Positions 9,277 through 57,752 of a DNA stretch of 64,000 bases are shown piece after piece. Numbering within the stretch: position 1 is the first letter of the stretch; every line of letters begins with the position of its first letter. The DNA is from Candidatus Shapirobacteria bacterium (GTDB lineage: Bacteria > Patescibacteriota > Microgenomatia > UBA12405), in contig JACPHO010000006.1 in the NCBI GenBank assembly GCA_016188545.1, forward strand, positions 693 to 64,692, written 5' to 3'. Under the pieces are notes generated by a model. That model saw nothing but the letters and a program-made list of their open reading frames with translations. It was not told the origin of the DNA and ran no database searches. The position numbers were made by a program, and so were the translations under genes.

Positions 9277-10152
9277 ATGTTCCTAGCACTGCTGGTACTA
9301 TTACTTGTCGTATTTGCGCGGCCTGCTAACGCTCAAATTCCCCTATTCTACCAGCTTCTTGAAGCATATCATCCTGTTTACTATTACAATCCCATCATCA
9401 GTCTTTCTAGTCCAGAAGTTCTTGGTGTCGGAACAAGTGCTACAGCTACGGCCACCCCCACTTCTGCTCCTACTAATATTGGTGGTGGTGACAAAGTAAC
9501 CACCATAGCTCTTTTAGGTGATTCCATGATTGACACCCTTGGCCAATATGTCACTACCCTCGACCAATCCCTTGCTCGCCAGTACCCAAATCGCTCGTTT
9601 AACCTTTTAAATTATGGCGTTGGCAGCCGCGACATCGAATACGGTCTCTATCGTCTAACTAATGGTTATGAATATCAAGGAAAACATATCGACAGTTTAG
9701 TTTCCGCCAACCCCGATATTGTTGTCGTCGAATCATTTGCTTACAACAACTTTGGCAACACCCAGCCAGGTATTGATCGTCACTGGCTAGCCCTTGGAGC
9801 GATCACCACTACTATTAAACACCGACTTCCCAAAGCCAAGATAATTATTGCTGCTACTATCGCCCCCAACTCCATTGTCTACGGCAATGGCATTAAAGAC
9901 CTCCATCTAACTTCACTCGAAAAAATTGAAAAAGCTAACACCACCAAACTCTATCTCCAAAACGCCATCAATTACGCTACTTCTCAAGGGTATCCCTTAG
10001 CCAACGCTTATCAAGCCAGTCTTTCTGGTAACGACGGTCAGCGTCAATATATCAGCTCAACCGACAATCTCCACCCTTCAGCAATGGGTGCTTCACTTTT
10101 TTCTGACTCCATTGCTAAGACTATTGAAAAACACAAGTTACTTGAGAATTAA
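9277..10152 (+). CDS. Secreted SGNH/GDSL-family hydrolase
   Basis: Signal peptide MFLALLVLLLVVFARPANA; block-I motif ALLGDSMID with catalytic Ser. Confidence 0.65.
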   Translation: MFLALLVLLLVVFARPANAQIPLFYQLLEAYHPVYYYNPIISLSSPEVLGVGTSATATATPTSAPTNIGGGDKVTTIALLGDSMIDTLGQYVTTLDQSLARQYPNRSFNLLNYGVGSRDIEYGLYRLTNGYEYQGKHIDSLVSANPDIVVVESFAYNNFGNTQPGIDRHWLALGAITTTIKHRLPKAKIIIAATIAPNSIVYGNGIKDLHLTSLEKIEKANTTKLYLQNAINYATSQGYPLANAYQASLSGNDGQRQYISSTDNLHPSAMGASLFSDSIAKTIEKHKLLEN

Positions 10153-23659: not shown

Positions 23660-24442
23660 ATGATCAGAGCTACTATTTTTTTCCTCAGAAGTCTTCTCTA
23701 TCACCTTACCTATTCAATATCGTCAAAAACCCCTGACAAAATAATCCTCTGTTATCACTCTGTTGGTGGTCCTAGTTGGGATTACAATGTCAAATTAAAC
23801 GATTTCAAAGATCAAATCGATTACCTTCTAACCCTTTATCAACCAACCACTTTAGACAAAATTATCACCGCGACAGCCCCCTCTTTTGTACTCACCTTTG
23901 ATGACGGCTACAAAAGTATTTTCAAAATTCACGAGTTTTTAAAGACAGAAAATATTTATCCCACCCTATTTCTTCTATCCGACAAGAAAAATCTGAATCA
24001 CCAAGAAATCGATAACAATATAAGTCTACTCAAAAATCATCAAGTCCGAAAACTAATTGCTTCCGGTTGGAAAATCGGTTCCCACGGCAGTCAACATCAA
24101 GATTATTGGCAACTCAAACCAAACGAAATTAGTTCTGAGATTGTCAAATCAAAAAGCGATCTTGAAAAAAGATTTGGAGTACCAATCAGTTGTTTCTCCT
24201 ACCCAAAGGGTAGATACTCACCAGCAATAATTGACGCAGTCAAAAACGCCGGTTACAAGATGGCCGCCACTATGGATGATGGAATCTTGGATAAAACAAC
24301 AAATCTCTATACCATTCCCCGAATCGGTGTCGACAAAACACTTAATATAGATGAGTTTAAAAGAGTATTAGCCATCTCTACAATTACCGCCAGAGGTATT
24401 GTCAAAAAACTCGGTGGCAAATTATTAGCTAAACTAATCTAG
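23660..24442 (+). CDS. Polysaccharide deacetylase (CE4/NodB homology domain)
   Basis: 260 aa; TFDDGY, HGSQH and proline-containing NodB motifs. Confidence 0.7.
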   Translation: MIRATIFFLRSLLYHLTYSISSKTPDKIILCYHSVGGPSWDYNVKLNDFKDQIDYLLTLYQPTTLDKIITATAPSFVLTFDDGYKSIFKIHEFLKTENIYPTLFLLSDKKNLNHQEIDNNISLLKNHQVRKLIASGWKIGSHGSQHQDYWQLKPNEISSEIVKSKSDLEKRFGVPISCFSYPKGRYSPAIIDAVKNAGYKMAATMDDGILDKTTNLYTIPRIGVDKTLNIDEFKRVLAISTITARGIVKKLGGKLLAKLI

Positions 24443-24711
24443 TTCTTGTACACCTCTTCATGTTTTCCAATTGCTACAAAATAAGCAGTATTCTCATCAA
24501 TATAATAAAAAATCATTCTGATACTCTCATTGATAGAAATACTCCACGATTCTTTCATTGATCCTGTTAGTTTATGCAACCTTAATGAAGGTCTTGACTT
24601 GTCCAAACAAAATATTTTTAATTTGCTTGCCACCAGATCATACAGCTTCTTGTTCTTCTTGGCTATTTTGAATAAATCTTTTTCTACTTTTGTGTCAAAT
24701 ATTACTTCCAC
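24439..24711 (-). CDS. Type II toxin, RelE/ParE family
   Basis: 90 aa; LHKLTGSMKESWSISINESIRMIFYYID..AYFVAIGKHEEVY (RelE fold signature). Confidence 0.7.
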   Translation of the reverse strand: MEVIFDTKVEKDLFKIAKKNKKLYDLVASKLKIFCLDKSRPSLRLHKLTGSMKESWSISINESIRMIFYYIDENTAYFVAIGKHEEVYKN

Positions 24712-24982
24712 TCTTCAGTTTAGCAAAATACTCATCGATATTATCAATTTTAATAGATTTGCTTTTTCCTGACAACGAGTCCGCGACTCTCTTCTTTACT
24801 CTATCCGAAGCCTCAAAAGTCGGGTACTCTTCCTCAACTTTGTTGACCATCAAATATTTGATATACGAGGCCAGAGTCATCCCCCACTTATCAGCCCTTT
24901 TCTTGACTTCATTTTTGAGAGCCACAGGCAAACTAATTTTTATCTGGGTAATTGCTTGATTCATACCACTATTATACCCCAA
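24695..24982 (-). CDS. Antitoxin, ribbon-helix-helix type
   Basis: Overlaps the toxin start by 17 nt; QIKISLPVALKNEVKKRADKWGMTLASYIKYLMV is RHH-like; probable start at the internal MNQAIT. Confidence 0.6.
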   Translation of the reverse strand: MGYNSGMNQAITQIKISLPVALKNEVKKRADKWGMTLASYIKYLMVNKVEEEYPTFEASDRVKKRVADSLSGKSKSIKIDNIDEYFAKLKSGSNI

Positions 24983-25064: not shown

Positions 25065-27848
25065 GTGCTCAAAAAAATATTTTCCTCACCATTTTTTTAC
25101 CCATCGCTCCTAACTATTGTTTTGTCGTTAATTTGTTTCGCCAATTATGTTCCCAACACCTATCTCACCGGCTGGGACAATCTCATGCCCGAACTCAATA
25201 TTTGGATGAACCTCAAGAGGTCACTTTTTGCTGTCTGGCAAGAATATCAAGGCCTTGGCCTTGTTGGTGGTATGGGCCACGCCACAGATTTGATCCGACA
25301 ACTAATTATTTTACCCTTTACTCTAGTTCTCCCTACCAATCTCATCCGCTATCTCTGGCATTTTGCCATGCTATTTCTTGGAACATTTGGAATCTATTTT
25401 GGTGTCAACAAATTATTCTTAAATCATAAATCATATTTCATAATTCCTTTTTCAAGTGCCCTATTTTATCTTCTCAATTTTGGCACCATCCAGTATTTTT
25501 GGGCTCCCCTCGAAACTTTTTCCACTTTTTGGGGATTTTTCCCTTGGCTTATATTCTTCCTTTTTGACTATCTCGAAACACCAAACAACAAAAACCTCAA
25601 AAAAATATTTTGGATAAACCTGCTCGCCATCCCCTCATTTTATGTTCAGACTCTATTTGTAGTCTATATGTTATGTGTTTCTCTTATCCTTTTTTCTCAC
25701 TTTGTATTCCATTTTAGAAGTTGGAAGTTAGAAGTCGGAAATTCCATCAGAACTATTCTACTGATCTTGCTCATCAATAGTTTCTGGCTCCTGCCTCAAA
25801 TTTACTTCCTAAAAGAAAATCTTCACAGTCCGATTGCCGGGATTGGCAACTTCATGTCCTCCGAAGAAAGCTTTACCCGTAATCAAAACCGTGGCTATCT
25901 TTCCGATTTTCTTATTTTACGGAACTATTACATCGATTTTCCCGACTCCCAAGGACCATTTATGGCACCATGGATTGTCCATTTTTCCAGTCAATATATC
26001 CTTATTTGTGGATATATCATCGGGTCTTTGACTATTTTTGGATTAATATTTCTTCTGTCTGCTCCAAAACAGCTTAGTTTCAAAAAGCTCTCAGTAGTTT
26101 TTATTTTCCTACTTTCTGCCCTCACCTTACTTTCAGCCACACCACCCTTTTCTGGATTCAATACCCTTATTCGTTTTTCAGACTTACTCAACCAAATATT
26201 TCGAGCCCCTTTCACCAAATTTATAGTCCCCACCATTTTTTCTTTTTCCTTGCTTATTGCTTATGGGCTCCATGCTTTAGCTCAATTTTTCACCCAAATT
26301 AAGTATTCCCAAAAAGTATTTACTCCACTATTTTTTATTTTTTACTTTTTACTTTTATTCACTTTCTCCTTTCCTGTCTTTAAAGGCAATCTATTTTCCA
26401 GCAAAATGCGACAAACAATTCTACCTGAATATTTTGAGATGTTCAGACACCTCCAAGCCAAATCTCCAACAGCCCGAATCAGCAACCTCCCTTCTGGTTC
26501 TTTTTGGGGATGGACAAATTATTTGTGGGGCTATCGAGGCTCAGGTTTTATTTGGTACTCTCTCCCCCAGCCAATACTCGACCGTGCCTTTGATGCTTGG
26601 AACCTAACGAATGAACAATACTACTGGGAAATCAATCTAGCTCTCCAAAAAAGAGACCCCATCCTCCTTTCTCAAGTTCTAAAAAAATATTCGATTGAGT
26701 ATATTTTGTTTGACAACAACATCTATTTTCCCGACGAATTTATCTATGCCAAACAAAGCGTAGCTACTCCCAGTTTGTTACTACAAACACCAGGTGTCTT
26801 TCTCGATCAAAGGTTTGGCAATATAAGTCTTTACAGAACTTCAGTTACTACCTCTCCATACCTTCTCACCAACCCTACCAACAGCTCCAACTCAGGTTTC
26901 CTATCTGAAGACAGTATCTACGTCCAACACCAAGACTACATCTCCACCCCATCAACTCAGAGCCTAGATTATCCTTTTGTCAATTTATTTACCAACCGTC
27001 TCCAAAACGAAATCCCCTACCAATTTAAAGTTGACAGTGACACACTTTCTATTTCACGCAAGTCAGACAACTACAAAACAACTATTCCATTAGACAATTC
27101 CATTAATATAACCAAGAATAAATCCAAAAACATCAGTCTTTTATCCAACCGCCACAATTCTCAGCTCCTTGCTTACAACTTTCCTAGCGCCACTTTATCA
27201 AAGTCGTACCTCATTCAGGTCAACTACCAATACCTCACCGGGCTGCCACTAACAATATCTGTCAACAGTGACAACCTACAACAAAAATATCTATACACCA
27301 AACTTGACAAAAAAACTGGGCTTCAGAACGCATGGTTTGTAATCCCAGCTCGGGAAACAGAGAACTATAACCAAGGTATTACAGTGGTTTTCAACAACAC
27401 CTCATTTAGCAAATTTCTAACCCAAAACAAAGTCGTCGACGTGAACATATATCCCATCCCTCTTTTCGATTTAATCCGACAATCAAGTCCCAAATCAAAT
27501 CAAATTTCTAGCAGATCCGACCTAAAATTCAAAAGCGATATCTATCATTACCAAGTTGATGTTGACTCAAATTCAACATCAAATTCCACTCTCGTCCTCC
27601 CTCAGTCCTTCTCTCCTGGCTGGCTCGCCTTCTATTTTAATTGTAAGGGTAATGCTTTATGCTTACCTACTCTCCTATCCAACCATGTCCTCATCAACAA
27701 TTGGGCCAATGGTTGGCTTGTCTCGCCGAAGCCAACCAGCGAAGGCGGAGCATTTACTATCTACATCTTCTTTTGGCCCCAGCTTCTGCAATTTCTTGGC
27801 TTTGGACTACTTATTGGCACCTTTATCTGGATTTTGAAAAAACACTAA
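25065..27848 (+). CDS. YfhO-like GT-C family membrane glycosyltransferase
   Basis: 927 aa; about 14 N-terminal TM helices, a large soluble C-terminal domain and a final C-terminal TM (LQFLGFGLLIGTFIWILKKH): YfhO/GT-C topology. A GT2 gene lies upstream. Confidence 0.55.
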   Translation: MLKKIFSSPFFYPSLLTIVLSLICFANYVPNTYLTGWDNLMPELNIWMNLKRSLFAVWQEYQGLGLVGGMGHATDLIRQLIILPFTLVLPTNLIRYLWHFAMLFLGTFGIYFGVNKLFLNHKSYFIIPFSSALFYLLNFGTIQYFWAPLETFSTFWGFFPWLIFFLFDYLETPNNKNLKKIFWINLLAIPSFYVQTLFVVYMLCVSLILFSHFVFHFRSWKLEVGNSIRTILLILLINSFWLLPQIYFLKENLHSPIAGIGNFMSSEESFTRNQNRGYLSDFLILRNYYIDFPDSQGPFMAPWIVHFSSQYILICGYIIGSLTIFGLIFLLSAPKQLSFKKLSVVFIFLLSALTLLSATPPFSGFNTLIRFSDLLNQIFRAPFTKFIVPTIFSFSLLIAYGLHALAQFFTQIKYSQKVFTPLFFIFYFLLLFTFSFPVFKGNLFSSKMRQTILPEYFEMFRHLQAKSPTARISNLPSGSFWGWTNYLWGYRGSGFIWYSLPQPILDRAFDAWNLTNEQYYWEINLALQKRDPILLSQVLKKYSIEYILFDNNIYFPDEFIYAKQSVATPSLLLQTPGVFLDQRFGNISLYRTSVTTSPYLLTNPTNSSNSGFLSEDSIYVQHQDYISTPSTQSLDYPFVNLFTNRLQNEIPYQFKVDSDTLSISRKSDNYKTTIPLDNSINITKNKSKNISLLSNRHNSQLLAYNFPSATLSKSYLIQVNYQYLTGLPLTISVNSDNLQQKYLYTKLDKKTGLQNAWFVIPARETENYNQGITVVFNNTSFSKFLTQNKVVDVNIYPIPLFDLIRQSSPKSNQISSRSDLKFKSDIYHYQVDVDSNSTSNSTLVLPQSFSPGWLAFYFNCKGNALCLPTLLSNHVLINNWANGWLVSPKPTSEGGAFTIYIFFWPQLLQFLGFGLLIGTFIWILKKH

Positions 27849-28117
27849 TGTTCTCCATAAACTTCTTTGTGAGTACCAATATCCGACAGAACAATTGTGT
27901 CATTTTGAGAATAAAATAATATTCGTAAATCATCATTGATTGAAATACTCCAAAACAAACTCAGATCACCTTCCAATTGATGTAGCCTCAGTCCATCATT
28001 ACTTTCTCCATTCAACAGTTGTTGCACAACATCCTGTATTTCTATACCCAGACTCTTGTTTTTTCTCAATATATTCTTCAACCGTTGGTCAAAATTATCA
28101 GTTGTTCTCAATCTCAC
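27845..28117 (-). CDS. Type II toxin, RelE/ParE family (paralog of 24439..24711)
   Basis: 90 aa; LHQLEGDLSLFWSISINDDLRILFYSQNDTIVLSDIGTHKEVY. Confidence 0.7.
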   Translation of the reverse strand: MRLRTTDNFDQRLKNILRKNKSLGIEIQDVVQQLLNGESNDGLRLHQLEGDLSLFWSISINDDLRILFYSQNDTIVLSDIGTHKEVYGEH

Positions 28118-28377
28118 TTAATCATTTTAGCAAAGAATTCATTTATGTCAGTTATCTCGTGTAATTTTCCATTTTTCTCGTCAATCTTAGCCTGTTTCAA
28201 AGCCTCAATAGATCTTTTCGATAGATGGTAGACTGGAATACCAGACTTCAAATCCATCATCAAAAGATGTTTCATATATCCAGCCAGAGTCAGATCATAT
28301 TCTTCAGCTCTTCTCTTCAGCTTTGCCTTTAATTTTAACGGCAAGTTTATTTTAATCTGTGTTTGTTTCTGGATCAT
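28114..28377 (-). CDS. RHH antitoxin (paralog of 24695..24982)
   Basis: 87 aa; QIKINLPLKLKAKLKRRAEEYDLTLAGYMKHLLM; overlaps the toxin by 4 nt. Confidence 0.6.
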   Translation of the reverse strand: MIQKQTQIKINLPLKLKAKLKRRAEEYDLTLAGYMKHLLMMDLKSGIPVYHLSKRSIEALKQAKIDEKNGKLHEITDINEFFAKMIK

Positions 28378-28505
28378 AAAATAATCATAGCACCAAAATC
28401 AGGACTTTTCAAGTACCACATCTCTAACACTATATTTGTTTTCCCTATCGCGAAGAGATTTCTTCACTACATGTAACTATGACAATGTATATACAATGTC
28501 AATAA

Positions 28506-28539
28506 ATAATATTATGTAATATAAATTACATAATATTAT
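28506..28539. promoter_or_regulatory. Perfect 15-bp inverted repeat ATAATATTATGTAAT-ATAA-ATTACATAATATTAT (operator-like)
   Basis: Verified base by base; lies 40 nt upstream of the ATP-grasp gene start (GTG 28580). Confidence 0.6.
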
Positions 28540-28579
28540 CACATTGATTTATCTCCAAAACGCCCTATATTAAAAGTAC

Positions 28580-29650
28580 GTGAACAATACTATTGTTAAC
28601 CTACCTCATACTCGACAACTTATTGCCAAAAATAATCATAGTTGCCGCAAACTACCACAGAAAGTCGCCATCATCTACACCGACGAAAAAAGGGAATATT
28701 TCTATACAGAGGAAGAATTTTGGACAGTCGAAGGTTCTGAAGATGAAGCTCGCGAATTTCAACCTTACTTTGACCAACTAAATATCCAAACCTGTTATCT
28801 CAAGGGCGATTCAAATCTAGTTAAAAACCTCCGCCATGAAAAACCAGATATGGCTCTTAATCTCGTTACTACTGTCAAAGGATATGACTATCTCGGCGCC
28901 ACTATTCCTGCCACTCTAGAACTACTAGAAATACCTTATACTGGTGCCGCTATATTGGGATTTTCCCTTGGTTGTAATAAATATCTAATATACGCTCTCT
29001 TATCTCAACACGGAATCCCTGTACCTAGATTCCAACTACTTACATCAACCAAATCAACCATTGACCCATCACTCCGTTACCCTTTGATTCTCAAACTAAA
29101 CGAAGAGCATAGTAATGTTGAAATTAAACGGGAATCAATCGCTGAAAATGAGACTCAATTGCGTAAACGACTCCGTTATCTCATTAATAAATACGAACAG
29201 GATGTCCTCGTTTCCGAGTTTATTGACGGTCGAGAATTTGGTGCCTTCGTCTTCCAGTCATATAACAAAAAAGCCTATACAATTGAACGTAAAATTCATC
29301 TTCCCAACAACAACTCCCGACACGAATTTTTGGATTACGATATCGTCTGGGGAAATGATTACGACAACTACAAAAAATATGTCCATTATGAAAAATTCCA
29401 CGATCCTCTCCTCAACGCCTATGTCAAGAAAGCTTTCAACATTATCAAGATGGACGACTATGGAAAATTTGATATCCGGATGGACAGTCTTGGCAATTAT
29501 TACTTTATCGACGCCAATGCCAACTGCCACTTTGCACCTCTCACCGGCAGTTCATCAGAATTATCAATTGCTATGAAAATGTATGGAATTTCCTTCAAAA
29601 CTCTTCTCAAACGTCTACTACAAAACACCATGCGGGAATGGGGCTATTGA
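28580..29650 (+). CDS. ATP-grasp ligase, D-Ala-D-Ala-ligase-like family (paralog 1)
   Basis: 356 aa (GTG start); LNLVTTVKGYDYLGATIPATLELLEIPYTGA, an ATP-grasp core, GKFDIRMD and YFIDANANCHFAP. Confidence 0.65.
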   Translation: MNNTIVNLPHTRQLIAKNNHSCRKLPQKVAIIYTDEKREYFYTEEEFWTVEGSEDEAREFQPYFDQLNIQTCYLKGDSNLVKNLRHEKPDMALNLVTTVKGYDYLGATIPATLELLEIPYTGAAILGFSLGCNKYLIYALLSQHGIPVPRFQLLTSTKSTIDPSLRYPLILKLNEEHSNVEIKRESIAENETQLRKRLRYLINKYEQDVLVSEFIDGREFGAFVFQSYNKKAYTIERKIHLPNNNSRHEFLDYDIVWGNDYDNYKKYVHYEKFHDPLLNAYVKKAFNIIKMDDYGKFDIRMDSLGNYYFIDANANCHFAPLTGSSSELSIAMKMYGISFKTLLKRLLQNTMREWGY

Positions 29651-29683
29651 TAATTACTAATCATCAACTATCATTAACTACAT

Positions 29684-30715
29684 ATGAATTTCAGTGACAA
29701 CTCTGATTCTCAAATAACTCCCAACCAACACCACCTTCCCCAAAAAGTTGCCATCCTTTATTCCGATGTCAAACGCGAGTTCTACGCCACCGAGGAACTC
29801 TTTCTCAGCGAAGCTGATGCCTACATTTATGCCAACGATGTTGCCAAATACGTTGCCAAAATGGGGATTGATGTCATCGCTTTAGCTGGTGACGTTGACA
29901 TGACCGACAAACTTCAAAAATATGACCCTGATATGGTGCTGAATCTCGTCGACTCTGTCAACGGAGAATCACATCTCGGTTCTTCTATCCCCGGAGTCCT
30001 GGAGGTTCTTCAAATCCCCTACACCGGTGCCGGAACACTCGGTTGGGCGCTGGGTTGTAATAAGTTTCTAATGTATCAGATACTTCAAGCCGCTGGGGTA
30101 CCGGTTCCAACTCATCAGCTAGTCAACAGCAGCAGTGACATGATTGACCCCTCCCTCCGTTACCCCCTGTTTCCCAAATTAAACAACGAACACAGTAGCA
30201 TTGGTATCGCCGACGATAGTATTTGTTACAACGAGAAAGAACTCCGAGCCAAATTAAGAGACTTGATTACCACTTACAGACAACCAGTATTGATTGACGA
30301 ATTTATTGCTGGCATCGAAGTCACCGCAGCTATCCTCGAAGGCGTCAACACTAAAGTCTATGCAGTTCAAAGAAAAGTAAAAGGTGGTAAAGAAGATGTA
30401 GTCACTTTTGATAAAAAATGGCGCGACTATCTTGACATGTCCTATACCAAATTCGAAGATCCAGTACTGAAAGGTCATGTCAAAATGGCATTTGATTTAC
30501 TGAAAATGTCTGACTATGGTCGGATTGACGTTCGTGTCGACGCTGCTGGTAGGTTCTACTTTATCGATCCTAACTGCAATCCATTTTTTGGTCCACCCAA
30601 GGAAACCCACGCAACTTACAGTATGATTCTTGACATGTACGGCGTCACTTTTGAAGAAACCCTCAAGCGAATGTTCCAAAATACCCTCGAAGCCGAACAT
30701 AACGGCTGGCATTAA
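29684..30715 (+). CDS. ATP-grasp ligase, D-Ala-D-Ala-ligase-like family (paralog 2)
   Basis: 343 aa; same architecture as paralog 1 (LNLVDSVNGESHLGSSIPGVLEVLQIPYTGA, GRIDVRVD, YFIDPNCNPFFGP). Confidence 0.65.
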   Translation: MNFSDNSDSQITPNQHHLPQKVAILYSDVKREFYATEELFLSEADAYIYANDVAKYVAKMGIDVIALAGDVDMTDKLQKYDPDMVLNLVDSVNGESHLGSSIPGVLEVLQIPYTGAGTLGWALGCNKFLMYQILQAAGVPVPTHQLVNSSSDMIDPSLRYPLFPKLNNEHSSIGIADDSICYNEKELRAKLRDLITTYRQPVLIDEFIAGIEVTAAILEGVNTKVYAVQRKVKGGKEDVVTFDKKWRDYLDMSYTKFEDPVLKGHVKMAFDLLKMSDYGRIDVRVDAAGRFYFIDPNCNPFFGPPKETHATYSMILDMYGVTFEETLKRMFQNTLEAEHNGWH

Positions 30716-30844
30716 TTAGTCCTTTAGTGCTCTAGATCGTAAGAGCTTTAGTTTTCAAATAAGGTAAAAGTTTTAGATTGTCTTTAAATAACTTTTCAAA
30801 ATCTTCACGAGTTATTTATTAATAAAACCAAAGATTTGTTTTTA

Positions 30845-31025
30845 GGGAGGACTTTTCGCAGTCAACCTACTCTACTTATTTAATTGACTTTAAAGTCAGA
30901 CACGTTTCCAGAGTGGAGGTTTCGCAGAAGACCTGTTTTTGGTTCGGAGGTCTTCGAGAATTCAGATAACTGCCGGACGTGCGTATGAGAACAGTAGAGA
31001 CTGCAGATTATCGGTCCATGGAGGA
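30845..31025. repeat. Structured intergenic repeat element, copy A (TTTCGCAG-containing modules)
   Basis: Shares GGAnnTTTCGCAGTCA, ACGTTTCCnnAGTGGAGGTTTCGCAG and CGGnACGTGCG..TGAGA..GATTAyCGGTCC blocks with copy B at 57515..57705; sits in a convergent intergenic region. Confidence 0.55.
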
Positions 31026-31044
31026 AATGTGTTTGAGTTTATGA

Positions 31045-41409: not shown

Positions 41410-43977
41410 TTACGAACACTTAGAGTATCCACAATAGCCATTGGAACATTTAAAACACCCTTCTTCAGCATAAAGTGGTGAGCCACAGTCGGGACAGGAG
41501 CTGAATTTACTCTCACCCTCGGTCTGCTTGACTCGTAGTTCCGCTAATATTTGCTTACCAGAAGTTGTCGTGACTTGTGTTTGTTCTTTTGGTTTACCCG
41601 TCGTAGCGTCAGCGGAGGCGGGCAGATCTAATTTTAGTTTTTCTTCCGCAAACATGTTCAGTTGTTCACCTCGAGAAATCTCTAAAATAGCCTTGCCAAC
41701 TGCATCAAACATACTCAGAACAGCATTGTTTCCCATCCCTACTTTCTGTCCACATGATACTCCCACCAGTTCGTCTGCCACCTCGTCTAAAGTTGCTCCA
41801 TATTTTAGTGCGAGGGATGCTAGTCGTCCAGTAACCTCAGACGCCCCAGCTAGGTAACCACCTGATTTTCCCAAATTCACAAACACCTCAACCGGTCCAT
41901 CCCCCTCCTCAAAAAATACCGAGGTATATACCTTACCCACATCACAAGTTTTTCGCAATCGTACTCCCCGAGCTGCCTCTGGTGTTTTTTTCTTGGCTTT
42001 TAAGTGCAACACACTTAAGTGCGACTTTCCATTACCCTCAACTGCAACAGTCTTTTCTTTAACAGGAGCAATCACTTCTTTCTCACGACTACCACTACGA
42101 TAGATAGTAATTCCCTTAGTGCCCAGAGCATAAGCCAATCGGTATGCTACCCTCACATCTTCCACAGTAGCTTCCTTAGGAAAGTTAATAGTCTTACTAA
42201 CTGCATTGTCAGTATATTTTTGAAAAACTGCTTGGATTTTGACATGCCATTCTGGGGAAATTTCCATGGCAGTCCGATAGATATTTACAATATCATCAGG
42301 AAGGCCTTCGATTCCGGTTAGTTTTCCTCCATTTTTTACTATTCTGTCCAAAAGTTGCTCATTATAGAGATCCCTTCTTTTTAATTCAGCCACAAATACC
42401 GGATTCATCATATAAAGAGTCTTCCCTTCGACAGTATTTTTTTGGTACCCCAGCGAAAATGCTGGTTCTACTCCCGAAGATGCATCAGCAATCATCGAGA
42501 TGGTTCCGGTTGGCGCTATGGTCGTCAGTGCCATATTTCGAGGACGGTAATCAGTATTAGCAAATACTGACACATCCCATGCTGGGAACACTCCTCGGGT
42601 CTTTGCTAACTCAACAGAAGCAATCTTTGTCTCATCTTGGACAAACTTCATTATTTTTTCAGCCCAAGCAGCACCCTCGTCAGAGTCATAACGAATTCCC
42701 AGTTTGAAAAGCATATCCGCAAAGCCCATCAGTCCCAAACCCACCCGTCGGGTTTTACTAACCATTTCTCGAATTTTGACCACTGGGAATTGATTCACCT
42801 CCACCACATTATCCAAAAAATGAATTGACTCGTGGACCACTCTCTTAAGTTCGTTCCAGTCCAAATCTCCAGTTTCTAGTTTCTGGTTTCTAGTTTCTGT
42901 TTCAAAATTTGATTTTACAAATTTTGAAACATTAATCGAACCCAAATTACAGGCATCATAAGGCAAAAGTGGTTGTTCACCACAAGGATTAGTTGCCTCA
43001 ATACGACCCATTGAAGGTACTGGATTACTGCTTGATTCATTCATCCGATCGATAAAGACTAGACCTGGATCACCATACTGCCATGCCAGTCGTGTTACCA
43101 AATTAAATACTTTATAAGCATTCAATTTTATAGTCACCTCACCCGTTCGGGGATTAATTAAGTTGTATCCTTCACCTTCGTTAGTTGCCTTAGCCCAATC
43201 GTATAGTTTCTTAGTCCACAACTCAATTTCTCGAAGTCGAGCATCCACGTCGCGAGAGGCTTCCGCTATCCTAATTTTTTCAACAATATCTTCTGGAAAG
43301 CTGTCATCAGTCACAAATTTTTTATCACTATCAATCTTCTCCATAAAAACATTTGTCACCGCCAGAGAGATATTAAAATTAGTCAGCGAATACTCATCTA
43401 ACTTCACCACCGAGAAACGTAGTACATCCGGGTGATCTATCGACAGCATGCCCATGTTTGCCCCCCGTCGAACTCCACCCTGTTTAATCTGGGATGTCAC
43501 ATCGTTGTACGCCTGCATGAAGGATACGGGGCCAACTGTAGTGCCGCCAGAAGTGGCAATATAGTCGCCAAAAGGTCGTAGTCGGTTAAAAGAAAATCCT
43601 GTTCCCCCCCCACTTTTATGAATCTTAGCCATATCAGTCATGGTTTCCAAAATCCCGCTCATCGAATCCTCTATAGGTAGCACAAAACAAGCCGATAACT
43701 GCTGATGTTTTTTACCGGCATTTACCAAGCAAGGAGTGTTGGGGAAAAACTTCTGTTCCGCCATCAAGTCATAAAAGACCTGCGCCTGTGCTTCGACATC
43801 CACCTCACCCTTTCCGAAAACTGCATCTCCCTTGGCTAAGTTGTAAGCCACTCTCCAAAAAATATCCTTAACCGATTCAACGAGCTTTCCCGATTCATCC
43901 TTCATTCCATACCGTGTTTGAGTAATGTACTTGGCATTGTCAGACAATAGCGGTTCAATTAGGTTTTGGTTATTCAT
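41410..43977 (-). CDS. nrdJ: Class II (adenosylcobalamin-dependent) ribonucleotide reductase
   Basis: 855 aa; FFPNTPCLVNAG, CGEQPLLPYDACNLGSINVSKF, C-terminal Cys-rich zinc ribbon. Confidence 0.85.
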   Translation of the reverse strand: MNNQNLIEPLLSDNAKYITQTRYGMKDESGKLVESVKDIFWRVAYNLAKGDAVFGKGEVDVEAQAQVFYDLMAEQKFFPNTPCLVNAGKKHQQLSACFVLPIEDSMSGILETMTDMAKIHKSGGGTGFSFNRLRPFGDYIATSGGTTVGPVSFMQAYNDVTSQIKQGGVRRGANMGMLSIDHPDVLRFSVVKLDEYSLTNFNISLAVTNVFMEKIDSDKKFVTDDSFPEDIVEKIRIAEASRDVDARLREIELWTKKLYDWAKATNEGEGYNLINPRTGEVTIKLNAYKVFNLVTRLAWQYGDPGLVFIDRMNESSSNPVPSMGRIEATNPCGEQPLLPYDACNLGSINVSKFVKSNFETETRNQKLETGDLDWNELKRVVHESIHFLDNVVEVNQFPVVKIREMVSKTRRVGLGLMGFADMLFKLGIRYDSDEGAAWAEKIMKFVQDETKIASVELAKTRGVFPAWDVSVFANTDYRPRNMALTTIAPTGTISMIADASSGVEPAFSLGYQKNTVEGKTLYMMNPVFVAELKRRDLYNEQLLDRIVKNGGKLTGIEGLPDDIVNIYRTAMEISPEWHVKIQAVFQKYTDNAVSKTINFPKEATVEDVRVAYRLAYALGTKGITIYRSGSREKEVIAPVKEKTVAVEGNGKSHLSVLHLKAKKKTPEAARGVRLRKTCDVGKVYTSVFFEEGDGPVEVFVNLGKSGGYLAGASEVTGRLASLALKYGATLDEVADELVGVSCGQKVGMGNNAVLSMFDAVGKAILEISRGEQLNMFAEEKLKLDLPASADATTGKPKEQTQVTTTSGKQILAELRVKQTEGESKFSSCPDCGSPLYAEEGCFKCSNGYCGYSKCS

Positions 43978-47780: not shown

Positions 47781-47815
47781 ACCAAAAAAACCCGCTCGTA
47801 AGGGCGGGTTTTTTT
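47781..47815. terminator. Terminator hairpin AAACCCGC-TCGTAAG-GGCGGGTTTTTTT (repeat copy 1)
   Basis: A-tract + GC stem + T7; follows the rplA stop. Confidence 0.75.
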
Positions 47816-54153: not shown

Positions 54154-55020
54154 TTATTCTAATCCCAACTCAATTATTTTATCGAGTAGCTTTGAATACG
54201 ATATTCCAGCTGCCCTCGCCTCTTTTGGCAGTAATGAGTTTTTTGTCATCCCCGGTAAGGTATTGATCTCCAGCACAAATATTTTTCCCTCCCTAACTAT
54301 CATATCGACTCTCGCAAACCCATTCGCTTTAACAGCTTTATAAACTTTCAAAGTTATCGCCTCCACCTTTCTTTGTAATGCTGGCGATATTCTGGCGGGA
54401 CATATTTCATCGGCCATACCATCAACATATTTTGCTTCATAGTCAAAAAATGGATTTTTAGGATGAATTTCAATAATAGGTAACACTACTGGTAAGTCGT
54501 TTCCCAACACCCCACACGACAGTTCCAGTCCCTCAATATATTTTTCCACTATCGCCTCCTTACTATATTCCTTGGCTTCAACAATCGCTTTAGTCAGCTT
54601 GTTTTGTTGTTTGACAATACTCACTCCCACACTAGAACCGCCGTCCACTGGCTTAACCACACAAGGTGTTTCAGTTGTCAGTGGTGCCATTAATATCCCC
54701 TCACTCTCCATTACCTTTCGGAATATCATTTTGTCCATCCCTACCGCCGACGCCATCACTCCGCTCCCGGTGTATTTGATTCCTCTTGTTTCTAAGTATC
54801 CCTGAATCGCCCCATCCTCTCCACTCTTACCATGTAAAACCAGGAATGCGATATCTGGTTTAAATTCTGTCAGCTTATCTATCTCGCTGGGCATGTCCAC
54901 TGACAAAACTTCATATTTCTTTTTAGATAAGTTATAGACTACCTCGCTGCCTGAGTTAAGTGACACCACCCTCTCACTACTGTCTCCACCCATTAATACA
55001 GCTACTTTTAATTTTGTCAT
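54154..55020 (-). CDS. ddl: D-alanine--D-alanine ligase
   Basis: 288 aa; KVAVLMGG, FLVLHGKSGEDGAIQGYLETRGIKYTGSG, ATP-grasp C-terminal blocks. Confidence 0.8.
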   Translation of the reverse strand: MTKLKVAVLMGGDSSERVVSLNSGSEVVYNLSKKKYEVLSVDMPSEIDKLTEFKPDIAFLVLHGKSGEDGAIQGYLETRGIKYTGSGVMASAVGMDKMIFRKVMESEGILMAPLTTETPCVVKPVDGGSSVGVSIVKQQNKLTKAIVEAKEYSKEAIVEKYIEGLELSCGVLGNDLPVVLPIIEIHPKNPFFDYEAKYVDGMADEICPARISPALQRKVEAITLKVYKAVKANGFARVDMIVREGKIFVLEINTLPGMTKNSLLPKEARAAGISYSKLLDKIIELGLE

Positions 55021-57514: not shown

Positions 57515-57705
57515 CTTGAGACGTTTCCCAAGTGGAGGTTTCGCAGTAACAACTTTCAAACTATCACCAGATCGCCTATTGTTTTAGGTTGTTTTGAAAG
57601 GAACTTTCGCAGTCAGTCTGCTATTTGGTTGGAGACTGACGAGAATGTAGGTGACGGCGGTACGTGCGCTTGAGATTATGTTAGCCAGCCGATTACCGGT
57701 CCGAC
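57515..57705. repeat. Structured intergenic repeat element, copy B
   Basis: Shares three sequence blocks with copy A (30845..31025), the first two in swapped order; contains a perfect 8-bp hairpin GTCAGTCT..AGACTGAC. Confidence 0.55.
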
Positions 57706-57752
57706 TCAAAACAAGCTAAAACAACAGATATGGTGAAAAAACTTTTCAAGAG

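Follow-up and report, generated by a model that had tools for sequence, protein, structure and literature searches.

Why would a bacterium with its own D-alanine-D-alanine ligase gene (ddl) carry two further Ddl-like ATP-grasp genes in tandem, and does the perfect palindrome in front of them regulate their expression? This question is raised by a stretch of 64,000 nucleotides (nt) of contig JACPHO010000006.1 from Candidatus Shapirobacteria bacterium, analysed at its full length and referred to below as the window. A sequence-only reading of the window had described the two genes as tandem paralogous Ddl-like ligases of 356 and 343 amino acids (aa), 33 nt apart, and the coordinates of the open reading frames (ORFs) and their Pfam matches agree with this description. 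We refer to the genes and their products as grA and grB. We propose that they form a conserved two-ligase Ddl-like module, and that the module is preceded in the window by a candidate operator of the ribbon-helix-helix (RHH) type that is now without an adjacent regulator; taken as a whole, this reading has in our judgement about an even chance of being correct. The two genes, and the ddl gene that served as a comparator, are:

28580..29650, + strand: grA, 356 aa, GTG start; Ddl-family ATP-grasp ligase with a 'variant' type of active site
29684..30715, + strand: grB, 343 aa, ATG start; Ddl-family ATP-grasp ligase of the 'canonical' catalytic type
54154..55020, - strand: housekeeping D-Ala-D-Ala ligase (ddl), comparator; all canonical residues kept

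The two proteins are 43% identical to each other, and both match the Pfam model Dala_Dala_lig_C (PF07478), with 58.3 bits for grA and 62.4 bits for grB (gathering score 24). As the criterion for a housekeeping Ddl we used the curated NCBIfam cut-offs, which are 243 bits for NF002378 and 245.65 bits for TIGR01205. The ddl of the window, which is divergent from alr (alanine racemase) and murF in a ddl-alr-murF locus at 54.1-57.5 kb, scores far above both (337.3 and 287.5 bits, respectively), whereas grA (100.4 and 85.0 bits) and grB (116.6 and 99.9 bits) reach less than half of either cut-off; the earlier view that the pair is distinct from the ddl at 54154 thus holds. In a PDB profile search with the pair, the strong matches were exclusively Ddl and Van ligases, with E-values down to 1.7e-26 and 22-27% identity between Ddl/VanA and grA/grB. 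Weaker matches were to the L-amino-acid ligase BL00235 (3vot; E = 1.6e-5), confined to the ATP-binding segment at residues 126-229, to cyanophycin synthetase (E = 1e-3) and to 4wd3 (E = 0.52). An AlphaFold model of grB with 23 close homologues, which has a predicted local distance difference test (pLDDT) score of 65, likewise finds Ddl enzymes as its best Foldseek matches.

The residues of the active site set the pair apart from Ddl (numbering is that of E. coli DdlB). The Mg/ATP ligands K97, K144, E187, D257 and N272 are shared with Ddl/VanA ligases by both proteins, and by analogy the same acyl-phosphate chemistry is presumed for grA and grB. grB also keeps K215 and R255, with E270 changed to D; grA likewise has D270, and it carries V at K215, K at R255 and W at Y216. 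In all grA orthologues K215 is V or C and R255 is K. Both proteins have other residues in the D-Ala1 and D-Ala2 pockets and in place of the N-terminal GGxSxE motif. In grB the pocket changes are Y216W, H63D/N (which depends on the alignment), G276F, S281A and L282T. H63 in grA is T or K, varying between two alignments, and across the two proteins G276 is F or H and S281/L282 are A/T or S/E. The ddl of the window retains all D-Ala pocket residues. Within the D-Ala-binding set (E15, Y216, H63, S150, G276, S281, L282), the E15 column is unreliably aligned. Given the substitutions in the D-Ala pocket of grA as well as of grB, the earlier suggestion that the pair could build an unusual D-amino-acid dipeptide is unlikely to hold.

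The states of positions 215 and 255 can be followed in a wider family. A search of 1.8 billion cluster representatives returned 139 proteins at E<=1e-30, and in a rough neighbour-joining tree the single-domain relatives, which are 30-47% identical to both paralogues, cluster with grA and grB, away from Ddl. Throughout this wider single-domain family K215 co-occurs with R255 ('K/R' proteins), and a residue other than K at position 215 co-occurs with K255 ('x/K' proteins). Both tandem pairs examined, that of the window and that of the more distant lineage L065, consist of one 'K/R' and one 'x/K' protein. This composition raises the possibility of a single-step heteromer, in which grB is catalytic, grA is a catalytically weakened partner, and one bond is made rather than two. 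Ddl enzymes are dimers, grA has neither K215 nor R255, the order and adjacency of the two genes are strictly conserved, and the composition of both pairs fits such an arrangement. On the other side, grA retains K97, K144, E187, D257, D270 and N272 and its orthologues are 63-85% conserved, and 'x/K' proteins are also encoded without a second copy in their vicinity, as far as the examined loci extend (Dojkabacteria, for example), which argues that proteins of this type are active enzymes with stand-alone activity and not dead partners. We therefore regard the single-step heteromer as unlikely. Many two-unit Ddl-like ATP-grasp chains of 650-730 aa, uncharacterised and with the motifs AEFD...NxAEG, were also found (P0239, P0240, P0242, P0249, P0251, P0261). 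Four of them (P0239, P0242, P0251, P0261), with two Ddl-like units fused side by side, were considered as a 'Rosetta stone' for an interaction between grA and grB. We rejected this idea: these proteins form a clade separate from Ddl and from grA/grB, about as distant from the latter as Ddl is (25-30% identity), and both halves keep K215 and R255, so that they are not fusions of a grA-type with a grB-type protein.

Judged by these scores and residues, grA and grB are an uncharacterised variant, restricted to the Candidate Phyla Radiation (CPR), of a known kind of enzyme: a branch of Ddl-like ATP-grasp ligases with a clear residue signature. Searches of the literature on Microgenomates and ATP-grasp enzymes, and on the grA/grB family, found nothing; no member is named, and there is no Pfam sub-family.

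To what extent is the pair conserved? The best homologues of grB, at 65-93% identity, are from Candidatus Shapirobacteria, Woesebacteria and other Microgenomates (CPR), and carry either the name 'hypothetical' or the automatic label 'D-alanine-D-alanine ligase'. A scan across species-representative genomes gave 27 loci. In 25 of these a grA orthologue lies directly before a grB orthologue on the same strand, and the remaining two have a lone grB-like gene. Identity of the pair is 65-93% across Shapirobacteria and Woesebacteria, together with one Berkelbacteria locus. In the closest full relative, L001 (the same as L034), grB is 93% and grA 73% identical to the proteins of the window. The two genes stand alone and adjacent in the window, in L036 and in L064.

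None of the 27 loci has a cell-wall gene (mur, van, alr or dipeptidase) beside the pair. This result bears on a reading in which the pair is a cell-wall variant, making an alternative D-Ala-D-X dipeptide or depsipeptide in the manner of VanA, or adding side chains or cross-bridges to the stem peptide. The nearest characterised relatives are Ddl and VanA, a peptidoglycan pathway is present (ddl, alr and murF in the window), and in Shapirobacteria the upstream neighbour of the pair is a large membrane protein of ~900 aa (no Pfam match), all of which speak for it. However, the residues that bind D-Ala are replaced (Y216, H63, G276, S281/L282), the host genome has its own canonical Ddl, and the neighbours found in place of cell-wall genes are GNAT-like, amidase-like and SET-domain genes. 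We consider a cell-wall variant quite improbable. By all three tests (scores, pocket residues and linkage), grA and grB are not the cell-wall D-Ala-D-Ala ligase.

We clustered the neighbours of the pair using all ORFs of 29 loci, which include the window and a few loci from outside the scan. The first recurrent family, F1, is a protein of ~370 aa encoded divergently from grA in 13 loci (for example, L038:1131-2237 (-)). The family is found only in CPR and comprises 91 unnamed proteins or clusters (P0121-P0211), and F1 has no sequence match in Pfam, NCBIfam or PDB. Its AlphaFold model has a pLDDT of 93.5, and the best structural matches are acyl-CoA:isopenicillin-N acyltransferase (E = 8e-10, TM 0.62-0.66), NAAA and acid ceramidase. 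These three are self-processing cysteine N-terminal nucleophile (Ntn) amidases or acyltransferases whose substrates are small N-acyl compounds. The SGCQT motif of F1 contains an invariant Cys, which lies at the start of a strand, as expected of the nucleophile. The model thus predicts that F1 has a cysteine Ntn amidase/acyltransferase fold. The second family, F2 (~211-220 aa), is present in 12 of the 29 clustered loci, either between grA and grB, as in the closest relatives (L034, L035, L061-L063), or beyond F1. It is weakly GNAT-like (Acetyltransf_3, 22.9 bits, below threshold), and NCBIfam and PDB sequence searches with it were empty. A SET-domain protein of ~130-140 aa (Pfam SET, 58 bits) is encoded near the pair in five loci (L040:3751-4158 (-), L047:9000-9392, L050, L052 and L060), and genes for GIY-YIG proteins and serine recombinases are frequent around the pair in relatives. 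PADLOC defence models gave no matches to grA, grB, F1, F2, the SET protein or the 927-aa protein of the window. Two ligases with an acyltransferase and an amidase, as these are predicted from sequence, are more in keeping with a pathway that makes and turns over a small peptide-like or N-acyl compound than with synthesis of a cell-wall dipeptide.

The coupling of an ATP-grasp ligase to an amidase has a parallel in glutathionylspermidine synthetase/amidase, in which an ATP-grasp amide synthetase is coupled to a cysteine amidase that acts on a small-molecule amide. By analogy, grA and grB would correspond to the synthetase, and either F1 or a C39-like domain fused to one family member (P0237, described below) to the amidase; the amidase folds are different, there is no sequence relationship, and F1 is absent from the window. 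A working model for the two ligases themselves may be taken from rhizocticin biosynthesis, in which two co-encoded ATP-grasp L-amino-acid ligases, RhiM and RhiC, assemble a short peptide by forming its bonds in succession (PMC13579937). Sequential ligation of this kind could apply to grA and grB by analogy. The L-amino-acid ligases (BacD, RizA, BL00235, RhiM/RhiC) belong to a different ATP-grasp sub-family of which grA and grB are not members by sequence, and the pair is without warhead-biosynthesis genes.

Paired ATP-grasp ligases are also a feature of graspetides, and the sequence-only reading had raised a graspetide or microviridin-type pathway, noting at the same time that no precursor peptide ORF was obvious. 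On this reading the pair would cross-link, through lactone or lactam bonds, the ribosomal precursor of a ribosomally synthesized and post-translationally modified peptide (RiPP) encoded elsewhere in the genome. In graspetide systems a gene for a precursor peptide of <=150 aa adjoins the ligase genes (PMC8939145). We searched for small ORFs within <=700 nt around the pair in 26 loci. All but one of the small-ORF clusters that recur in several loci are frame-shadows of F1, of an SHMT gene or of a GIY-YIG gene; no small ORF is conserved beside the pair across the 26 loci, and there is none in the window, in line with the earlier remark on the precursor. The 329-nt gap after grB contains no conserved ORF, and the intergenic DNA there holds a candidate structured RNA instead of a peptide gene. 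The one exception among the clusters is a 59-aa protein encoded just after grB in five loci of a single sub-clade (L054:6182-6361, L055:8973-9152, L047:9401-9580, L051:~9670-9840, L053:2514-2603). Its N-terminus is hydrophobic, and its C-terminal tail contains two Cys and several Lys, Thr and Glu residues; it has no Pfam match and is absent from the window.

This 59-aa Cys/Lys/Thr-containing protein is one of four observations that favour a graspetide pathway. The others are the two ATP-grasp genes in tandem; the GNAT-like gene between the ligases in close relatives, which recalls MdnD of the microviridin cluster with its ligases MdnB/MdnC (PMC8939145); and a distant member of the family, the metagenomic protein P0237 (524 aa), whose gr-family ligase is followed in the same chain by a C-terminal Peptidase_C39-like domain (33 bits; gathering score 24); domains of this type often cleave off leader peptides. 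This fusion, which the window lacks, hints, from its domain content, that some members of the family handle peptides. The homology of grA and grB argues against the proposal: no graspetide ligase or RimK was found at E<=1 with a profile of both paralogues, or at E<=10 with a grB profile, and the Pfam RimK model gives 17.7 bits with grA, under its 21-bit threshold, and no match with grB. Moreover, in contrast to the microviridin cluster, the pair has no precursor, no ABC exporter/peptidase and no homology to the graspetide clade. Thus, a graspetide pathway is very unlikely, and the GNAT-like gene and the C39-like fusion leave a peptide-modifying role with a small residual probability.

We next consider the palindrome and the promoter region of our proposed two-ligase module. 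The relevant elements are:

28506..28539, no strand assigned: perfect 15-4-15 palindrome, ATAATATTATGTAAT-ATAA-ATTACATAATATTAT; candidate operator, with its centre ~57 nt ahead of the grA start codon
28480..28501, no strand assigned: second dyad/direct-repeat element, TGACAATGTATATACAATGTCA; contains ACAATGT twice
28544..28571, + strand: grA promoter, sigma-70-like; TTGATT, 16 nt, TATATT
29647..29674, + strand: grB promoter-like site; TTGATA, 16 nt, TATCAT, 9 nt upstream of the grB ATG; a match to consensus only

The palindrome had been reported as a perfect 15-bp inverted repeat of 34 nt, 40 nt upstream of the ligases, and this description is accurate: its two 15-nt arms, at 28506-28520 and 28525-28539, are 100% complementary, the spacer is 4 nt, and 40 nt separate the end of the palindrome from the grA GTG at 28580. 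It is the longest perfect inverted repeat of the 64 kb. Arms of 15 nt were reached in 0 of 60 Markov simulations, with either whole-window or intergenic (27% GC) composition. As a DNA hairpin it has a folding energy of -15.2 kcal/mol (z = -4.6). Allowing <=3 mismatches, the palindrome occurs once in the window (0/100 shuffles), and a search of the window for a regulon, using the palindrome or its core with the same tolerance, found only the site itself. The second dyad, the leaderless-looking promoter and a divergent toxin-antitoxin pair at 27845-28377 (-) are additions to the earlier description of the locus.

The palindrome abuts the -35 box of the grA promoter, which begins 4 nt past it. 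The grA -10 ends 8 nt ahead of the GTG and there is no Shine-Dalgarno sequence; hence, the grA mRNA is probably leaderless, with a transcription start predicted from the position of the promoter. The -10 hexamer is conserved at a fixed short spacing in most relatives' loci, and the N-terminal sequence VNxxIVNLPHTRxLI is conserved among relatives, which backs the GTG/ATG start. The site at 29647..29674 is possibly a promoter of grB's own. In the grA, grB and antitoxin genes alike, a -10-like hexamer precedes the start codon by 6-9 nt (28566-28580, 29669-29684 and 28389-28377 (-)) and there is no Shine-Dalgarno sequence, a shared arrangement that suggests that leaderless transcripts may be common in this genome. 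On the minus strand of the window, the sequence can be read as a perfect TTGACA (28502-28497) followed by a 17-nt spacer and a degenerate -10, TAGTTA.

Is the palindrome the operator of the module? Its occurrence is non-random and it is placed like a regulatory site, and to this extent the earlier proposal of an operator stands; the closest relatives, however, keep the promoter without the palindrome. In L001/L034 the same promoter and the first nine codons are preserved almost base for base, within an intergenic region of 74 nt that has neither palindrome nor toxin-antitoxin cassette, and the palindrome is also absent from L035, L036, L061 and L063. Hence, by this comparison, the palindrome does not serve the ligase module as an operator in general.

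When metagenomes were scanned for the 11-4-11 core of the palindrome, 29 contigs were returned, just one of which, L009, is a relative. The palindrome is identical in L009. Across both dyads (window positions 28478-28543) 64 of 66 positions are identical (97%), and identity remains high through the promoter (34/36) and the first 27 coding bases (26/27), after which grA falls to 66-75%, and third codon positions to 45%. Beyond the dyads the sequences of L009 and the window are not related: in L009 a divergent ORF of 53-65 aa with a CopG_antitoxin-type RHH domain (Pfam E = 8e-8) starts ~45 nt from the dyads and is followed by a DUF3800 gene. By sequence reading, the promoter of this RHH gene is TTGCCA, 17 nt, TAAAAT, and its -35 box and spacer overlap the smaller dyad; the large palindrome fills the gap between the back-to-back -35 boxes of grA and the RHH gene. 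Most simply, then, the palindrome would be a candidate operator of a lineage-specific RHH regulator once encoded divergently from grA. Since near-perfect identity of the site contrasts with synonymous sites near saturation, the comparison argues for either continuing constraint, for example by a regulator acting in trans, or recent exchange. We looked for a decayed remnant of the RHH gene at 28413-28477 and discarded this candidate, as its local alignment score was equalled by 40 of 500 shuffles.

The sequence-only reading had asked which family of transcription factors binds such a palindrome. The other 28 contigs with the core were uninformative on this point, with unrelated neighbours (GntR, BlaI-like or none). 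Since the core occurs beside GntR- and BlaI-like regulators, sequence alone names no regulator family.

An RHH-like protein is also encoded in the window itself, in a cassette next to the ligase module:

28114..28377, - strand: RHH-like antitoxin, 87 aa; outside the ligase module; promoter TTGAAA..TATGAT at 28412-28384
27845..28117, - strand: YafQ/RelE-family toxin, 90 aa; neighbour of the ligase module

Palindromes within their own promoters are typical binding sites of RHH antitoxins, and the antitoxin gene is transcribed divergently from grA, so that the palindrome could be the operator of this cassette and unrelated to the ligases. However, the promoter of the cassette (28412-28384) is at least 94 nt away from the palindrome. 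In L035 the same position is occupied by a homologous cassette (antitoxin 75% identical), and the palindrome is missing; L009 shows the converse, a palindrome and no cassette. The window also has a second toxin-antitoxin pair, paralogous to the first, at 24439-24982 (-), just upstream of the 927-aa gene, with an antitoxin 38% identical to that at 28114-28377; it has no palindrome like that at 28506-28539 in front of it. On the strength of L035, L009 and this second cassette we rejected the antitoxin as the owner of the site, a reading that we regard as largely refuted and highly improbable.

Another explanation is that the palindrome has no regulatory role and is a relic, or a structural or recombination site, within an insertion hot spot for cassettes in front of grA. 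The content of this region varies among loci, from nothing to a toxin-antitoxin cassette, an RHH gene with DUF3800, or a tRNA; no cognate regulator is present in the window; and the GIY-YIG and serine-recombinase genes frequent nearby in relatives would suit such a hot spot. Against this, the site is single-copy in the 64 kb, lies in L009 exactly between two -35 boxes, and is conserved across both dyads at a distance at which synonymous sites are close to saturated. A relic or recombination site is therefore a rather doubtful explanation, and we prefer a candidate operator whose regulator gene has been lost from its side.

From the sequence features, homology, residue patterns and gene-neighbourhood statistics above, we infer the following scheme for the chemistry, the product, the start of transcription and the binding of a regulator. 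With ATP and Mg2+, each enzyme would convert a carboxylate to its activated acyl-phosphate and couple this to an amine, with substrates other than those of D-Ala-D-Ala synthesis. Acting sequentially or as an A/B heteromer, grA and grB would make a small peptide-like or N-acyl-amino compound, which in many relatives the GNAT-like acyltransferase and the cysteine Ntn amidase/acyltransferase presumably modify or turn over. Transcription would start from the conserved leaderless-looking promoter directly upstream of the GTG. The palindrome and the neighbouring dyad would be the likely operators of a lineage-specific, CopG-type RHH regulator that was formerly transcribed divergently. The gene for this regulator would no longer be adjacent here, with the YafQ/RelE-RHH cassette in its place; the site would therefore be served in trans or be an orphan.

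Several observations weigh against this scheme. F1, F2 and the SET protein are absent from the 64-kb window, so the argument from neighbourhood is borrowed from relatives. grA is without two residues that are catalytic in DdlB (K215 and R255), and may be inactive. The model of grB confirms the fold and is too poor for a reading of the pocket; the pocket residues rest on sequence alignment. With respect to the operator, the palindrome was seen in two lineages only, the window and L009; it lies upstream of the -35 box, which is not the classic position of a repressor; and the same core is found beside unrelated regulators (GntR, BlaI-like) in unrelated contigs. The RHH protein of L009 has no detectable homologues, and a homologue of it was not found in the window.

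The window contains further sequence elements. One lies after grB:

30729..30746, + strand: weak terminator-like hairpin after grB

The candidate structured RNA in the gap after grB belongs to a family of structured non-coding elements outside Rfam, with copies in the window at 30901-31035 (+), after grB, and at 57586-57721 (+), after murF, and others at L034:9112-9246 and L061:6087-6222. Across four distinct sequences, pairing holds in 93.8% of cells, and compensatory double changes are present in 17 of the 36 pairs; none of 500 shuffles reaches this level, controls slid along the sequence are 27-44% paired, and G-U pairs favour the + strand. The full length of the element is ~190 nt, with a long outer stem, and in the window each copy has a partial duplicate of its own 5' core (..GGAGGTTTCGCAG..) ahead of it. 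Rfam, applied to the region and to the whole window, finds only four tRNAs, far away. The second-longest perfect inverted repeat of the window is a 14-6-14 repeat at 42898-42931 (TGTTTCAAAATTTG ... CAAATTTTGAAACA), within an 855-aa ORF (41410-43977 (-)). A perfect 12-8-12 repeat at 47784-47815, with a G+C-rich stem core (AAAAAAACCCGC ... GCGGGTTTTTTT), lies between convergent genes and, from its sequence and position, looks like a bidirectional intrinsic terminator.

What do these findings mean for the family and for its hosts? The palindrome is of local interest, as an example of a candidate operator that outlives the adjacent gene for its regulator. The automatic JGI label 'D-alanine-D-alanine ligase' on these proteins is corrected by the evidence from residues and scores. 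Experiments now have a handle in two enzyme types defined by their residues and a confidently modelled, unannotated Cys-Ntn partner family of 91 proteins. CPR bacteria (Patescibacteria) have tiny genomes with very few biosynthetic genes; given the strong, ordered conservation of a ligase pair in such gene-poor genomes, its product is likely something that these episymbionts need or deploy. Pairs of K215/R255 and x215/K255 proteins, together with F1 and the GNAT-like protein, may constitute an undescribed, CPR-restricted pathway for a small N-acyl peptide or pseudopeptide, or a RiPP-like peptide-modifying system built on ATP-grasp enzymes of the Ddl type instead of the RimK type; we offer this as a speculative possibility, with the chances well below even. 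If true, the pathway could supply, among other possibilities, an osmolyte, a decoration of the envelope or a metabolite directed at a host, and either version would represent a new functional class within the Ddl family.

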